A DNA stretch of 64,000 nucleotides from a phage. The notes beneath the pieces were generated by a model. It did not search any database. It saw nothing but the letters and a program-made list of their open reading frames with translations, and had not been told where the DNA came from. The stretch lies in sequence record NC_100371.1, one strand, 5' to 3'. Below, in pieces: positions 46,349 to 53,947 of this stretch (position 1 is its first letter; the number at the start of each line of letters is the position of its first letter). Both the position numbers and the translations under genes were made by a program.

Positions 46349-46424
46349 TGGTGCTGATGGCAGGACTTGAACCTGCAACCTATTGATTACAAATCAATTG
46401 CACTGCCAATTGTGCTACATCAGC
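46349..46424 (-). tRNA. tRNA-Thr (anticodon UGU)
   Basis: Manual fold: acceptor GCUGAUG/CAUCAGC, anticodon arm AUUGA-UUUGUAA-UCAAU, T-loop UUCAAGU, CCA. Confidence 0.7.
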
Positions 46425-46430
46425 AAAAGG

Positions 46431-46527
46431 TGCTAGGTGATGGAATCGAACCATCTATGTATTCAACGACTACCTCGTCTATTTTCAGGATTAAAAATCC
46501 TCGCCCTTGCCAAAGGGCTTACCTAGC
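46431..46527 (-). tRNA. atypical tRNA-like gene (97 nt; Lys-like UUUUUAA loop; identity unresolved)
   Basis: Perfect 7-bp acceptor GCUAGGU/ACCUAGC, D-arm GCCC-UUUGGCAA-GGGC, T-arm GAUGG-UUCGAUU-CCAUC, but 46 nt between D- and T-arms; no encoded CCA. Confidence 0.4.
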
Positions 46528-46830: not shown

Positions 46831-46918
46831 TGGTGGTGAGTGATGGAGTCGAACCACCCGAATCGCAATGATAACAGATTTACAGTCTGCCCCGCTACCC
46901 CTACGGAATTAACTCACC
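46831..46918 (-). tRNA. tRNA-Tyr (anticodon GUA), class II
   Basis: Manual fold: acceptor GGUGAGU/ACUCACC, anticodon arm GCAGA-CUGUAAA-UCUGU, long variable arm, T-loop UUCGACU, CCA. Confidence 0.7.
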
Positions 46919-47048
46919 TAAATACTAATATTTAAATTCTTTTTAAAATAGCTAGTGTTCTAACCACTAACTATGAGGTATCGGTAAAGTGGTTACCGCC
47001 ACTTGCCGAAGATTTACTCTGCTAAAGTAAGCTACATTAAAAAGAACT

Positions 47049-47181: not shown

Positions 47182-47210
47182 ATATTACACTGTTAGGCAA
47201 AGTTTGTCAA
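47182..47210 (-). promoter_or_regulatory. sigma70-like promoter for tRNA cluster (minus strand)
   Basis: Minus strand TTGACA, 17 nt spacer, TAATAT, about 55 nt upstream of tRNA-Arg 5' end. Confidence 0.5.
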
Positions 47211-50059: not shown

Positions 50060-50614
50060 TTACTCCCCGCTGTCAATAGCAAGACTCATTGCAATACGGT
50101 ATGCCTCTTCTAATGGTAAGAGTCTCCCCCACACATCCCAACCGACATCAAACTGCCTGCCAAACAACTGCTGTGTGGTTCCGTGAGCATGACCGAACAG
50201 TTGGACTGATCCGTGAGGCTTTCTGTTCCACTTTGCAAACTGGTAATGGCTCATACAGATCAAATTCTTGTTGTGGCGAAGCTCGTAATAATCTACAACC
50301 TCATGACCGAACTCTTTCATAATTCTGACAGTCGTCCTTGTGTCATGGTTACCACGAACAAGAATAATATGTCCGTTCAACATATTTAGAACATCTGGAA
50401 GCAATTTGTTGATATTCTTATCATTAGTGCACGCAATATCCCCCAAGTGAAACACAGTGTCTGCAGGTGACACAACAGAGTTCCACTTGGTGATGATTCC
50501 CGCATTCATACTGTCAAGATTGTGATCATACTGAGATCTGTGTTTTTGACATGAGTCGAACTCCATTACCCGCTGGTGGAGAAAGTGTGTGTCGCTTGTT
50601 ACAAAGTATTTCAT
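50060..50614 (-). CDS. calcineurin-like metallophosphoesterase (184 aa from ATG at 50614)
   Basis: Motifs SDTHF, GDI, GNHD, GHAHG; start with GAGGAA RBS; ORF-track start at 50719 would overlap the kinase. Confidence 0.6.
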   Translation of the reverse strand: MKYFVTSDTHFLHQRVMEFDSCQKHRSQYDHNLDSMNAGIITKWNSVVSPADTVFHLGDIACTNDKNINKLLPDVLNMLNGHIILVRGNHDTRTTVRIMKEFGHEVVDYYELRHNKNLICMSHYQFAKWNRKPHGSVQLFGHAHGTTQQLFGRQFDVGWDVWGRLLPLEEAYRIAMSLAIDSGE

Positions 50615-50621
50615 ACATTCC

Positions 50622-51032
50622 TCATTTAAGTTTAATGCAGTTTTTAAGCTGGCGTTCCATACGATCCACAACCCTGTCTGGAACATCATGAATGCTTTTA
50701 TTACCATGGCGGTTTTCAACCACGATCACGGTATAACTATATCCATGACTGATCGCCATGTCAATATATTCTTGCACATATTTTTCTTTTGTAAACGTAT
50801 TACTTACCACGATACGGTCGTAGCCCATACGCATCATATCTTCTACGTTATCTTTGCACCATTTTGCTGCAAGTGTTACTTTACTTGCATCCCAATTGTA
50901 ATTGCCGTCATCGTCGTACCAGAACATATCGTTCTCAAAATGTGGATACAGACCTTCTAAAGATAGCGCATTTGCCAGTGTTGATTTGCCAGACCCTGGT
51001 AGACCACGCACGATATATAGCATTTTAGACAT
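50622..51032 (-). CDS. P-loop polynucleotide-kinase-like kinase (137 aa from ATG at 51032)
   Basis: Walker A IVRGLPGSGKSTLA near N-terminus; GGAGAG RBS upstream of ATG at 51032. Confidence 0.5.
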   Translation of the reverse strand: MSKMLYIVRGLPGSGKSTLANALSLEGLYPHFENDMFWYDDDGNYNWDASKVTLAAKWCKDNVEDMMRMGYDRIVVSNTFTKEKYVQEYIDMAISHGYSYTVIVVENRHGNKSIHDVPDRVVDRMERQLKNCIKLK

Positions 51033-51150
51033 AGTAACTCTCCGTTTTAATTTTAATGATAGTATACCTAACTGTTTTGTTAATTTCAAGTGTTGACACC
51101 AGGTTATTTGTGTGGCAGAATAAAGGGACAAAATGACAAATGAGGAATGT

Positions 51151-52068
51151 ATGATGAAGTATTTTAATGCAGACGACCTGGTTGACAAAGGTCTTGTAAC
51201 CAGCAGATATTACCCAGATCTTGGATTAAAGATCTACAAATATGCCAGAAAAGTATTCTACAACAATTTATGGCATTTGTCTCCGCGTTTACTAGAGTGC
51301 CGAGGCATTGTTGTCGGTAATGAAGGAAATGTTGTGGCATGGCCCTTCACAAAAGTGTTTAATTTGGGAGAAAACTCCACCAACCTGCCTGACAATAAAC
51401 TTGTGACGGCGGTAGAGAAAAAGAACGGATTCCTTGGTGTGGTATCATCTCATAAAGGTGAACTATTGTTTTCAACAACCGGGTCTCTTGATTCTCCATA
51501 TTGTAACCTTGCAAAGGAAACCATCCAGGAGCAATGTGGTAATTTAGATCTTATCAAGAAGGTTATGGGCCATGAAAACATGACATTCATGTTTGAAATT
51601 TGTCACCCTTCAGATCCGCATATTGTTCAGGAAGATCATGGCGCATATTTGATAGGTTGCAGATATAATGATTCTGGAATAATGCTACCAGAAGCAGCTT
51701 TAGATGGGATTGCCAAATACCTTGGTGCAAAACGTCCTCACACTGTGCGTGAAATTCCGTTCAGCTATGCAAAAGAATTAGCTGCAGAAACAAGGGGTGA
51801 AGGGTATATGATCCGTAAGCCTTACTACCCTTATGACCTGCAACTAAAGATCAAGTCTCCCTACTATCTGGCACGGAAGGCCGTAATGAGGTGTAGAGCT
51901 TGGAAGATTTGGGATGATGATATCTTTAAACGTGTTGACGAAGAGTTTTACGGCATGGTAAACTTCATTCGTAGGAACTACACAGAAGATGTGTGGAATT
52001 GCCTCCTGGAGCAGGAACGCCGTGAGATACTTGACTGCTATTTCCACAACGAGGACTATATGCAATGA
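51151..52068 (+). CDS. RNA ligase-like nucleotidyltransferase
   Basis: Motif I-like VEKKNGFLG (KxNG as in Rnl1/tRNA-ligase type); GAGGAA RBS before ATG 51151; divergent from kinase/phosphatase pair. Confidence 0.5.
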   Translation: MMKYFNADDLVDKGLVTSRYYPDLGLKIYKYARKVFYNNLWHLSPRLLECRGIVVGNEGNVVAWPFTKVFNLGENSTNLPDNKLVTAVEKKNGFLGVVSSHKGELLFSTTGSLDSPYCNLAKETIQEQCGNLDLIKKVMGHENMTFMFEICHPSDPHIVQEDHGAYLIGCRYNDSGIMLPEAALDGIAKYLGAKRPHTVREIPFSYAKELAAETRGEGYMIRKPYYPYDLQLKIKSPYYLARKAVMRCRAWKIWDDDIFKRVDEEFYGMVNFIRRNYTEDVWNCLLEQERREILDCYFHNEDYMQ

Positions 52069-53198: not shown

Positions 53199-53912
53199 AT
53201 GCTGAATACCAAATTAATTGACAACCTGGAAAAACTGTCCCAGCCTGAAAACTACCTTTGGTCTGCCAACTGGGTGGAAAACTGGAACCGTGTAGCAGCT
53301 AAAGTGAAAAAATCATACACACCATTCGAACTTCAGCTGAGTTTCATTGAGGAAGAGTTCAATGAGGTTTTGGAAGAGTTGGAGAAAGGTGATGGTGGGG
53401 ATCATCTCCTAAAAGAGGCCTGCGATCTTCATGTTGTCACAAGTTATGCCGCTTATCTTGTTAACGATAACCATGAAAAGTGGTCAAACCTGTTTGATAA
53501 TCCGCGAGGTCTTAAGTTTAAGATCGGTGAATTTTATGATACACTGATCGCTGCGAAAAATACCTCTAAGCAAAGAGCGTCTGCTTACCGCTTAGCAGAG
53601 TTGTCAACAGCTTTGCTGTTCCAGCTTCGCGGTGATGTGTGCGGGATGATGCGGAAGGTTCTAAAATCTAATGACAGCAAGTTTGCACGCGTCAACCATC
53701 TGCGGTATTCACACGGTGCCAGTGCAGATATGCCTGCTGAACAACTCATCGAGTTGGAGATTAAAGATCTTGAGCGACGCTTTGATGGTCGCTATGAAGG
53801 TTTTGTTGCTAAAGAAGAATTCTACAACGGAAATAAAGTTATCATATTCCTTGACAGTAAAGGTAAGATTATGAAGCCTTCAAGCTTCAAAGATGTAACA
53901 GAATATATTTAA
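53199..53912 (+). CDS. MazG-like nucleotide pyrophosphohydrolase domain protein (237 aa)
   Basis: N-terminal EEEFNEVLEELEKGD...EACD matches the MazG/HisE E-x2-E...E-x2-D pattern; C-terminal half unassigned. Confidence 0.4.
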   Translation: MLNTKLIDNLEKLSQPENYLWSANWVENWNRVAAKVKKSYTPFELQLSFIEEEFNEVLEELEKGDGGDHLLKEACDLHVVTSYAAYLVNDNHEKWSNLFDNPRGLKFKIGEFYDTLIAAKNTSKQRASAYRLAELSTALLFQLRGDVCGMMRKVLKSNDSKFARVNHLRYSHGASADMPAEQLIELEIKDLERRFDGRYEGFVAKEEFYNGNKVIIFLDSKGKIMKPSSFKDVTEYI

Positions 53913-53918
53913 TAACAT

Positions 53919-53947
53919 AGCCGGGGCGATCCCGGCTTTACTTGTTT
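53919..53947 (+). terminator. intrinsic terminator (plus strand)
   Basis: AGCCGGG-GCGAU-CCCGGCU hairpin followed by UUACUUGUUU, 7 nt after stop of 53199..53912. Confidence 0.6.

Follow-up and report, generated by a model that had tools for sequence, protein, structure and literature searches.

The window analysed here, the whole 64,000-nucleotide stretch of DNA from a Vequintavirus (rV5-like) phage, contains a tRNA-shaped RNA gene of 97-99 nt on the minus strand (46527-46429), which is very probably a functional, structured RNA gene and the Vequintavirus member of a five-armed tRNA-like family extending across the Vequintavirinae. The conservation of this family is far beyond chance. As to its role in Vequintavirus, we tentatively favour the co-option of the scaffold as an unconventional, nuclease-evading surrogate tRNALys(UUU); judged from sequence, the element may aid phage survival against bacterial tRNA-cutting enzymes.

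Detection and architecture of the gene

The element is matched by the Rfam tRNA model (RF00005) at 46431-46527(-) with 37.5 bits (E 2.7e-4 for the whole window), above the gathering score of 29 bits, a threshold missed by the Avunavirus homologue. ARAGORN reports it at 46429-46527(-) as 'tRNA-???', with an 8-nt loop, the 4-base anticodon AUCC and an all-A:U stem, a reading that is rejected because the homologues from Seunavirus, Mydovirus and Henunavirus are unable to form this stem. Resolution as a standard tRNA by a gene finder, which the earlier note had set against its own interpretation, thus did not occur, the four-base anticodon being meaningless. The minimum-free-energy fold displays the same five-helix shape as that described below (-34.8 kcal/mol, z = -4.0), none of 200 shuffled sequences folding as well. 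No Rfam family outside the tRNA clan matches the element at E values up to 10, so that a hammerhead-like reading of CUGA...GAAA was dropped; ARAGORN found no tmRNA, and the sole match to the Y-RNA-like family YrlA (25 bits versus 69) covers tRNA-Met and tRNA-Pro, outside the element.

GenBank labels for the family gene conflict, comprising tRNA-Lys, tRNA-OTHER, tRNA-TERM, '???' and hypothetical protein, and in many records the gene is left unannotated; the six tRNAs given in the rV5 genome paper do not include the element. Literature searches retrieved no publication describing the five-armed tRNA-like family, no paper joining Vequintavirus or rV5 with 'tRNA-like' or 'tRNA-Lys', only irrelevant matches for Vequintavirinae and anticodon, and nothing on the element among papers on Hena1, suppressor tRNAs or phage tRNA-like anti-defense; rV5-type phages are unmentioned in the PARIS papers.

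All the parts reported in the earlier note, namely an acceptor stem, a D-arm, a T-arm, a Lys-like hairpin and an extra hairpin, are present in the gene, which runs from G1 (46527) through A73 (46431) to C75 (46429), with a U (46428) in the place of A76. The acceptor stem comprises the strands GCUAGGU (46521-46527) and ACCUAGC (46432-46438), whose seven pairs are 100% paired in the 30 homologues, five of them with compensatory changes. After the dinucleotide AA follows the D-arm, GCCC-UUUGGCAA-GGGC (46503-46518), whose four stem pairs are 100% paired in the 30 homologues, three of them with compensatory changes; it can be drawn either with 4 bp and an 8-nt loop or with 6 bp and a 4-nt loop UGGC, as in tRNASec, and RNAalifold extends the stem by the invariant pairs U14:A21 and U15:A20. 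A D-loop G (46510) covaries with C56 of the T-loop (46448), as G:C in 10 of 17 sequences and as U:A in the other 7, forming the 19:56 elbow pair. Position 8 is A instead of U, and nucleotide 26 is absent.

The 17-nt anticodon-like stem-loop, G-AGGA-UUUUUAA-UCCU-G (46486-46502), displays covarying stem pairs and comprises only four Watson-Crick pairs with an invariant G on either side, or alternatively five pairs closing a 5-nt loop. Its 7-nt loop, UUUUUAA, contains U33, A37 and a Lys-like 'anticodon' UUU at 46493-46495. The region that follows spans 30 nt and consists of (i) a 6-nt 5' linker, AAAAUA (46480-46485), (ii) a 15-nt fifth hairpin, GACGA-GGUAG-UCGUU (46465-46479), and (iii) a 9-nt 3' linker, GAAUACAUA (46456-46464), departing from both canonical forms of the variable region, the short one of 4-5 nt and the class II arm with its short linkers. 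The T-arm, GAUGG-UUCGAUU-CCAUC (46439-46455), is 100% paired, with compensatory changes in two pairs and a canonical T-loop. The 7-bp acceptor stem, the 5-bp T-stem with its 7-nt loop and the elbow pair are those of a canonical tRNA. The earlier note correctly recognized an excess length between the D- and T-stems, although the spacing is 47 nt and not 46. The 3' end, A73-CC-U, is followed by UUU and then by tRNA-Thr.

Conservation and covariation across the Vequintavirinae

The 30 distinct homologues derive from five Vequintavirinae genera and from uncultivated phages. Of their 630 helix cells, 99.2% are paired, compared with 32-44% when the partner strand is slid as a control, and compensatory double changes are observed in 13 of the 21 helix pairs; in a 17-sequence set all 374 cells pair, including 19:56. 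An independent RNAalifold consensus discloses the same cloverleaf. A family covariance model (R1) scores its members at 87.7-122.8 bits and ordinary tRNAs at no more than 27.4 bits, detecting one copy per searched phage locus, with the element itself at 106.7 bits (E 3e-25); such a family-specific model (88-123 bits versus at most 27) would fix the inconsistent annotation. No host or prophage copy was found in 5,426 E. coli genomes, and the single match among 185,579 species genomes, in a Bdellovibrionales MAG, lacks a tRNA-like flank and is regarded as a chance match. Pattern scans of IMG/VR and metagenomes returned many chance matches, so the presence of a tRNA body was required.

The covariation refutes the reading of the gene as a decaying tRNA pseudogene or an annotation artefact, which we consider extremely improbable. 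The unencoded CCA, the low scores of the standard tools and the many records without annotation would fit such a decay, but the gene is conserved in five genera with the pairing described above, its unpaired linkers are invariant, and it is kept in Vequintavirus despite the loss of most of the subfamily's tRNA genes. The earlier note had offered a pseudogene as one option and a tRNA with an insertion as another; the latter describes the shape properly, yet the 30-nt extra region is no recent insertion, being an ancient and family-defining part across the Vequintavirinae.

The most conserved bases of the molecule are those of the two single-stranded linkers. G-AAAA (with G at 46486) and AUACAUA with the next G are invariant in all 30 homologues, with zero parsimony changes over the five columns of the former and the last seven columns of the 3' linker. 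The fifth hairpin is predicted in every homologue folded singly (17/17) and shows a compensatory A:U to G:C change in Avunavirus, its length and sequence differing among genera. The anticodon-like loop evolves at roughly sixfold the rate of the D- and T-loops, with 17 changes over 8 columns (2.1 per column) versus 0.3-0.4 per column, a ranking from which the extra-arm region is excluded, its count being inflated by misalignment. The anticodon is not conserved among orthologues, the loop triplets across genera comprising UUU, UAU, UCA, UCC and GCC, and in most members the loop is non-canonical, with 8 nt, with 6 nt on a 5-bp stem, or with A33. Between the KE22 and NINP13076 copies, three of the four differences fall inside the 6-nt loop. 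Since the loop is the fastest-changing unpaired part apart from the extra-arm region and is mostly non-canonical, the conserved function of the family's scaffold is probably not decoding.

Lysine-like features, genomic context and candidate functions

The identity set of LysRS consists of the UUU anticodon and the A73 discriminator, and the element carries both. This combination is observed in all six distinct sequences from Vequintavirus and is absent from every other genus; the three Avunavirus sequences display UAU with C or U at position 73, and all 21 remaining family sequences end in U73-CCA. Of the genera sampled, Vequintavirus alone lacks a canonical phage tRNALys(UUU), possessing six ordinary tRNAs and no tRNALys according to the rV5 paper, the BASEL record and the window, whereas Avunavirus, Mydovirus and Seunavirus encode their own tRNALys(UUU) and carry an element with a non-Lys loop and U or C at position 73. 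Positions 30-41 of the element (GAUUUUUAAUCC) match those of E. coli tRNALys (GACUUUUAAUCA), a stem-loop 100% identical across 5,426 genomes, at 10 of 12 bases. The site U36AAUC-C41 bears an A41C change, which 'substantially inhibits' cleavage by AriB (PMC12409363).

The element belongs to a seven-gene tRNA cluster together with tRNAs for Arg, Tyr, Ser, Thr, Met/Ile-CAU and Pro, and, alone among the seven genes, does not encode CCA. The earlier note had reported this absence as well as the CCA of all six neighbours, rightly in both respects, yet CC is in fact encoded in the element. In close relatives the place of CCA is occupied by CCU, CAU or ACA, and the constraint on their 3' end looks relaxed from the sequences. 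Four nucleotides downstream lies the phage tRNAThr(UGU) gene (46349-46424, minus strand), which is the nearest or next-nearest gene in the four genera checked directly and adjoins the element in Henunavirus annotations too; tRNAThr(UGU) is another AriB target, and the phage copy retains the host-like AriB site UAAUCA. A sigma-70-like promoter match, TTGACA-17-TAATAT (47182-47210, minus strand), is located upstream of the cluster and represents a consensus match only.

At 3.5-5.5 kb from the element, the window encodes an RNA-repair kit that comprises (i) an RNA ligase of the T4 Rnl1 family (51133-52068, plus strand; Pfam RNA_lig_T4_1, E 8e-15), (ii) a P-loop polynucleotide-kinase-like protein (ORF 50622-51188, minus strand; Pfam AAA_33), and (iii) a metallophosphoesterase (ORF 50060-50719, minus strand; Pfam Metallophos), annotated in the relative MZ501061 as 'RNA ligase', 'polynucleotide kinase' and 'putative phosphoesterase', respectively. 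The ORF starts of the latter two (within 50060-51188) are probably too long. In Seunavirus, a ligase and a phosphoesterase are likewise encoded upstream of the tRNA cluster. A tight operon link between the element and these genes was rejected, since the distances of 3.5-5.5 kb here and 7-10 kb in GAP31 indicate regional synteny only.

According to the favoured reading as a surrogate tRNALys, we infer that the element is expressed together with the tRNA cluster and processed as a tRNA: RNase P would cut its 5' end, the RNase P cut of the adjacent tRNAThr would release its 3' trailer, and the trailer would be trimmed to ...A73-CC, the final A being added by the host CCA-adding enzyme. Charging by LysRS would proceed via U35/UUU and A73, and the product would supply AAA/AAG decoding once Lys-directed tRNA nucleases, of the PrrC type or the PARIS AriB type, have destroyed the host tRNALys. 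Its resistance would stem from being a poor nuclease substrate, owing to the altered stem (C41), the extra arm and the unusual core, and the nearby ligase, kinase and phosphoesterase would answer the same pressure. Several features count against this proposal, including the fast-changing, mostly non-canonical loop of the family as a whole, the mere four Watson-Crick pairs of the anticodon stem, A8, the lack of nucleotide 26, a variable region of 30 nt with no counterpart among class II tRNAs, and the missing CCA together with the CCU, CAU or ACA of close relatives. A PARIS-specific version of the story is incomplete because of the AriB site retained by the adjoining phage tRNAThr. On a footing about as tentative, the five-armed scaffold, with its tRNASec-like D-arm, may more generally be an 'armoured' tRNA or bait module against tRNA-cutting immune systems, with the loop and discriminator rewritten between genera (Lys in Vequintavirus; UAU, UCA or Gly-like in others); the linkers and extra arm would then shield it from nucleases or trap them. 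Appendaged tRNAs have precedents in the same subfamily, which also speak for the surrogate reading: tRNAAsn(GUU) of Av-05 and GAP31 has a long variable arm, and the GAP31 tRNALys(UUU) has a hairpin inserted in its D-loop. Under the armoured-scaffold reading, these would represent further counter-defence appendages in sister genera.

Nearly as likely as a surrogate tRNALys, and no less tentative, is a non-decoding tRNA mimic acting as bait or competitive inhibitor, which would be processed and L-shaped like a tRNA, remain unused by the ribosome and occupy a host factor that recognises tRNAs, the most plausible target being a nuclease with which an anti-phage system attacks anticodons or tRNAs. 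The loop would track the nuclease repertoire of the host, while the linkers and extra arm would serve to prevent cleavage or to tighten binding. A decoy substrate for anticodon nucleases was among the options of the earlier note, and the Lys-like loop, close to the host tRNALys stem-loop, would suit it. A conserved body and linkers with a diversifying loop, as between KE22 and NINP13076, loops that are non-canonical in most genera, the loose 3'-end constraint in Vequintavirus and Avunavirus and the proximity of the repair kit are consistent with this proposal; so is a Lys-like stem-loop that retains the AriB-recognised UAAU motif while carrying C41, the PARIS authors having suggested that over-expressed viral tRNAs may inhibit AriB by competition. 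A decoy, however, has no need of A73, which is nevertheless joined with UUU in Vequintavirus only, and the strict retention of U73-CCA in the 21 non-Lys members suggests that the acceptor end matters; moreover, the loop is wholly different in other genera, and no nuclease is known to act on loops of the Gly or UCA type in the hosts concerned, Salmonella, Klebsiella and Erwinia.

Rather unlikely is a structured RNA that acts through its invariant linkers and tRNA core, either by binding a protein of the phage or the host or by serving in the processing or regulation of the cluster ahead of the late genes, with the Lys-like loop incidental and the loop and extra arm free to drift. The distribution of change along the molecule argues for it, the unpaired linkers being its most conserved parts and the loop and extra arm its least, as do a D-arm and core nearer to those of tRNASec than to those of ordinary tRNAs (relatives score best on RF01852, at up to 37.6 bits) and the stable tRNA-like RNAs encoded in the T4 tRNA cluster. 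It leaves unexplained why the stem-loop is nearly identical to that of host tRNALys, why position 73 changed to A and why the Lys-like form and a canonical tRNALys are distributed in complementary fashion; the analysis identified no partner protein, and pairing of the 3' linker with phage mRNAs was rejected, the complement CTATGTATTC (at most one mismatch) occurring four times in the window versus 4.1 expected. The 'tRNA-TERM' label in Erwinia phage records implies a tRNASec-like or UGA-suppressor tRNA, an extremely remote prospect for this element, in which UUU in place of UCA excludes the reading for the window. Six relatives do combine a loop C/U-A-UCA-A-A with U73-CCA and have RF01852 as their top Rfam family; the relatives score only 22.8-37.6 bits, below the gathering score of 47, and the UCA types carry A33 in place of U33.

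Defence by tRNA cutting (PrrC, PARIS, some retrons and Cas13) and the phage tRNAs that neutralise it form a very active topic, in which viruses are so far known to respond with an ordinary tRNA that bears a few point changes; a conserved five-armed scaffold with invariant linkers and a re-writable loop would be another kind of answer. Should the scaffold be charged and decode, the structural limits of a working bacterial tRNA would be wider. Phages of the rV5, PVP-SE1 and Mydo types, which see wide use in therapy and biocontrol, carry the element, and it is directly testable because carrier phages are available in the BASEL collection.

Comparison with known tRNAs and tRNA-like RNAs

Class II tRNAs (Ser, Leu and Tyr) share with the family the 7-bp acceptor stem, the 5-bp T-stem, the T-loop, the D-loop GG, the elbow pair and a fifth hairpin placed before the T-arm. 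Their linkers measure 0-2 nt, whereas the hairpin of the element is flanked by invariant unpaired linkers of 6 and 9 nt, and the variable region of the family, 30 nt long in the element, reaches 38-39 nt in most of the other genera. The element further differs in A8 for U8, the absent nucleotide 26, the 4-bp anticodon stem with G..G and the unconserved anticodon.

Bacterial tRNASec (RF01852) has in common with the element a long extra arm and a D-stem that can be drawn with 6 bp closing a 4-nt loop, which reads UGGC in the element and UGGU in the model consensus. The UCA-containing loop of the six relatives is one change from the Rfam consensus CUUCAAA, and among the Rfam families RF01852 fits best the copies from Erwinia phages, uncultivated phages and SSE-121. 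In contrast, the acceptor and T stems are 7/5 and not 8/5, and the discriminator is U or A instead of G. Long extra arms and anticodons that diverge widely among close relatives are likewise features of the allo-tRNAs and tRNASec-like tRNAs; allo-tRNAs, which Mukai et al. are said to have described in 2017, reportedly are bacterial and display polymorphic anticodons and 8/4 or 9/3 stems. The family differs in its 7/5 stems, phage-borne location and arm geometry.

Species 1 and 2 of phage T4 (rnaC and rnaD) are small stable non-tRNA RNAs that, like the element, are encoded inside a phage tRNA cluster. The T4 record gives 'small, stable RNA' as their only function. At 139 nt, rnaC forms no cloverleaf and ends in a T-arm after a hairpin; the family model detects neither gene at the T4 locus, matching tRNAThr and tRNALeu only, at 23-24 bits.

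A further relevant comparison is with the tRNALys(UUU) of phage T5, an ordinary, PARIS-resistant tRNA that experimentally rescues infection (PMC11464382, PMC12409363). Both are phage RNAs of the Lys(UUU) type, encoded along with a phage tRNAThr(UGU), in which the anticodon stem departs from that of the host at the AriB site, with C41 in each case. The element differs in possessing a fifth arm, a non-canonical core, no encoded CCA and a retained U39, the sequence homology between the two being confined to general tRNA features.

Sequence and fold of the element

The element (46431-46527, minus strand) is matched by the Rfam tRNA model with 37.5 bits (gathering score 29), and ARAGORN places a 'tRNA-???' having a 4-base anticodon at 46429-46527(-). 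The RNA reads, 5' to 3', GCUAGGU-AA-GCCC-UUUGGCAA-GGGC-G-AGGA-UUUUUAA-UCCU-G-AAAAUA, followed by GACGA-GGUAG-UCGUU-GAAUACAUA-GAUGG-UUCGAUU-CCAUC-ACCUAGC-A-CC-U. Taken alone, it folds at minimum free energy into a cloverleaf of five helices (-34.8 kcal/mol, z = -4.0); a 6-bp stem and a 4-nt loop describe the D-arm equally well. The 17-nt stem-loop is of canonical size and displays a canonical-looking loop, with U33, UUU, A37 and A38. The details listed in the earlier note are all present, small corrections apart: the spacer between the D- and T-stems is indeed long but measures 47 nt rather than 46 nt, and CCA is not encoded, the terminal A being replaced by U, but the CC is.

A conserved five-armed family

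BLAST and pattern scans yielded 30 distinct sequences, with homologues in (i) Avunavirus, (ii) Seunavirus (PVP-SE1, GAP31, 4MG, SSE-121, KE22 and others), (iii) Mydovirus (Mydo, KB57, VIK251, Ro1), (iv) Henunavirus (Erwinia phages Hena1 and pEp_SNUABM_01), and (v) uncultivated phages. Each phage locus searched carries one copy. A search of 5,426 E. coli genomes found none, and one of 185,579 species genomes, bacterial and archaeal, gave no real copy. In a MAFFT-based alignment of the first 17 homologues, the cloverleaf and the tertiary 19:56 pair comprise 374 cells, 100% paired, with 10 compensated pairs, and the elbow pair covaries between G19:C56 and U19:A56; when the 17 are folded singly, all form the five helices, the extra hairpin among them, and the stem of that hairpin carries compensatory changes. 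The covariance-model alignment of all 30 sequences is 99.2% paired over 630 cells, with double changes at 13 of 21 pairs and only 32-44% pairing in slid-partner controls, counts biased towards the model to which the alignment was fitted and including many compensated cells that trace back to few events. RNAalifold, run on this model-fitted alignment, recovers the same structure, and both it and the MAFFT-based count agree with the covariation counts. The covariance model scores family members at 87.7-122.8 bits, compared to 27.4 bits or less for all ordinary tRNAs; a weak match at 53857-53945 (+), with 16.9 bits and E 0.08, is probably noise. Judged by this conservation of sequence and pairing, the element is a member of a conserved family and not the pseudogene that the earlier note had offered as an option.

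Substitution rates, obtained as parsimony counts on the 30-sequence alignment, reveal an unusual anatomy. The unpaired linkers beside the fifth hairpin are frozen (G-AAAA, 0 changes in 5 columns; AUACAUA, 0 in 7), the D-loop (0.38 changes per column) and T-loop (0.29) are nearly so, the anticodon-like loop accumulates 2.1 changes per column, and the extra arm varies freely in both length and sequence. Four positions separate KE22 from NINP13076, and three of these lie inside the anticodon-like loop. The 4-bp register gives every stem-loop the form G-[4 bp]-loop-[4 bp]-G. Vequintavirus has the loop UUUUUAA and Avunavirus UUUAUAA; Henunavirus and three uncultivated lineages have CAUCAAA or UAUCAAA; and Seunavirus and Mydovirus have an 8-nt CCAUCCAG, CCAGCCAG, CCCUCAAG, CCCGCCAG, CCCUCCAG or CCUUCCAG, alternatively read as a 6-nt loop on a 5-bp stem. 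The 3' end is A73-CCU, once A-CAU, in Vequintavirus, C/U73-ACA in Avunavirus, and U73-CCA in 21/21 sequences from elsewhere.

A large extra-arm loop, GAACUAACAGUAC, is common to Henunavirus (loci L084, L086) and Mydovirus (L032, L034, L040, L045) and missing from the window copy; its short stem shows a compensatory GCC/GGC to GUC/GAC change, and the loop may be a second conserved motif. HNH homing-endonuclease genes adjoin the element in Ro1 (L038 1-300), stopping 6 nt short of it, and in SSE-121 (L037 516-588), and another lies inside the tRNA cluster of 241Ecol014PP. GenBank labels for the element gene comprise tRNA-Lys, tRNA-OTHER, tRNA-TERM, 'tRNA-???(atcc)', hypothetical protein or none. 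The genome paper on rV5 (PMC3606486) reports six tRNAs and makes no mention of the element.

The tRNA cluster and lysine-like features

The six neighbour tRNAs (Arg UCU, Tyr GUA, Ser UGA, Thr UGU, CAU and Pro UGG) all have CCA encoded, and a candidate sigma-70-like promoter match lies upstream of the cluster. Escherichia phage vB_EcoM_10C2_SA_NWU matches the cluster at 99.9% identity, and rV5, FV3 and BASEL Vequintavirus phages are ~97% identical. The E. coli rV5-type cluster also turns up, at 97-99% identity, in about 18 GenBank records (MG0656xx) named 'Campylobacter phage', a pattern suggestive of phages that are mislabelled or contaminants. The tRNA-Tyr GUA (46831-46918, minus strand), with a long variable arm and encoded CCA, scores 39 bits with Rfam and is missed by ARAGORN, unlike its counterpart in the relative L001. 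Most Vequintavirus genomes lack the ~127 nt that separate it from tRNA-Arg (46919-47048); in them only 4 nt lie between the two genes, and a query with the cluster aligns as two pieces with 89% coverage. An RNA ligase of the T4-Rnl1 family (51133-52068, plus strand), with a P-loop kinase and a metallophosphoesterase (within 50060-52068, minus strand), lies 3.5-5.5 kb upstream of the element; the component types are those of the T4 Pnkp/Rnl1 tRNA-repair pathway, which counters PrrC. RNA ligase 1 and phosphoesterase genes are also present in the corresponding region of GAP31 (L089).

Across positions 30-41 the element (GAUUUUUAAUCC) is identical at 10 of 12 positions to E. coli tRNALys (GACUUUUAAUCA), a host sequence confirmed at 100% identity in 5,426/5,426 E. 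coli genomes; C32U and A41C account for the two mismatches. The discriminator base is A73, that of tRNALys, and among the 30 sequences its combination with UUU occurs in Vequintavirus only. The PARIS nuclease AriB cleaves host tRNALys at U36AAUC↓A41, a cut that A41C 'substantially inhibits' (PMC12409363). The prime AriB targets are Lys UUU and Thr UGU, with Asn GUU third. The phage tRNAThr(UGU) (46349-46424, minus strand), which begins 4 nt downstream of the element, retains a host-like U36AAUCA41 site; position 39 is G in tRNAThr of Av-05 and Mydo.

Vequintavirus is the only sampled genus without a canonical phage tRNALys: rV5 and the BASEL record each list six ordinary tRNAs, none Lys. Av-05 (Avunavirus) has 14 tRNAs, Lys UUU, Asn GUU and Thr UGU among them, Mydo has UUU and CUU tRNALys genes, and GAP31 has CUU and an 87-nt UUU. 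By comparison of these sequences, the Lys-type loop thus occurs exactly where the ordinary phage gene was lost.

Several tRNAs of these relatives are themselves irregular. The GAP31 tRNA-Lys UUU annotated in GenBank (L030 5268-5354, plus strand) has a D-loop with an ~11-nt hairpin insert and is missed by ARAGORN. The 89-91-nt tRNA-Asn(GUU) of Av-05 (L090 4636-4726, minus strand) and GAP31 (L030 5524-5612, plus strand) displays a class-II-like variable arm, GGGAG-GAAU-CUCCC, and G73, unlike the normal 75-mer of Mydo. Immediately upstream of the element in Seunavirus and Mydovirus lies a non-canonical tRNA whose anticodon differs among phages (L030 2938-3011, L003 1419-1494, L031 2931-3005). In GAP31 it is an Arg GCG whose position 37 is C, in KE22 an 'Ile' GAU carrying C33 and U37, and in Mydo it has a 6-nt loop, ACGAUA. 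Another tRNA-like gene of GAP31 (L030 4344-4413) also has a 6-nt loop.

Candidate functions and known systems

The element is very probably a structured RNA that is functional and matured in the manner of a tRNA. The acceptor stem, T-arm and elbow, read by RNase P and the CCA enzyme, evolve under strong purifying selection across the family. The functional readings derive wholly from sequence comparison, with the LysRS and GlyRS identity rules and 3' exonuclease behaviour as background. The reading ranked first, tentatively, is an unconventional surrogate tRNALys: the 3' end would be trimmed to ...A-CC and completed by the host CCA-adding enzyme, LysRS would charge the RNA, and the charged form would serve when host tRNALys is attacked. 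It is favoured by UUU and A73 having been gained together, by the distribution complementary to canonical tRNALys, and by the appendaged, presumably working tRNAs of sister genera (tRNAAsn of Av-05 and GAP31, D-loop-inserted tRNALys of GAP31). Almost as likely, a non-decoding mimic or bait would fit a body conserved across the family while the loop is non-canonical and fast-changing, and the loosely constrained 3' end in Vequintavirus. In a rather improbable third possibility, the invariant linkers would carry the function, the loop then reflecting drift. A pseudogene is effectively excluded, as is, for the window copy, a tRNASec or suppressor, the latter yet more firmly.

Compared to known RNAs, the element scores above the gathering threshold of the generic Rfam tRNA model and departs from class I and class II elongator tRNAs in the defining variable region and anticodon conservation; it also does not come out as a pseudogene. 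Among Rfam families, tRNASec fits the copies of the Erwinia phages, SSE-121 and uncultivated phages best, at 22.8-37.6 bits against a gathering score of 47, because of their 6-bp/4-nt D-arm, long arm and CAUCAAA loop; tRNASec has 8/5 stems compared with 7/5 in the family, and by these stems and the score the element falls outside tRNASec. The literature searches turned up no publication that describes this five-armed tRNA-like family. T4 stable species 1 RNA is analogous to the element, not homologous, and, by analogy, the element may be functionally parallel to the PARIS-resistant tRNALys of T5.
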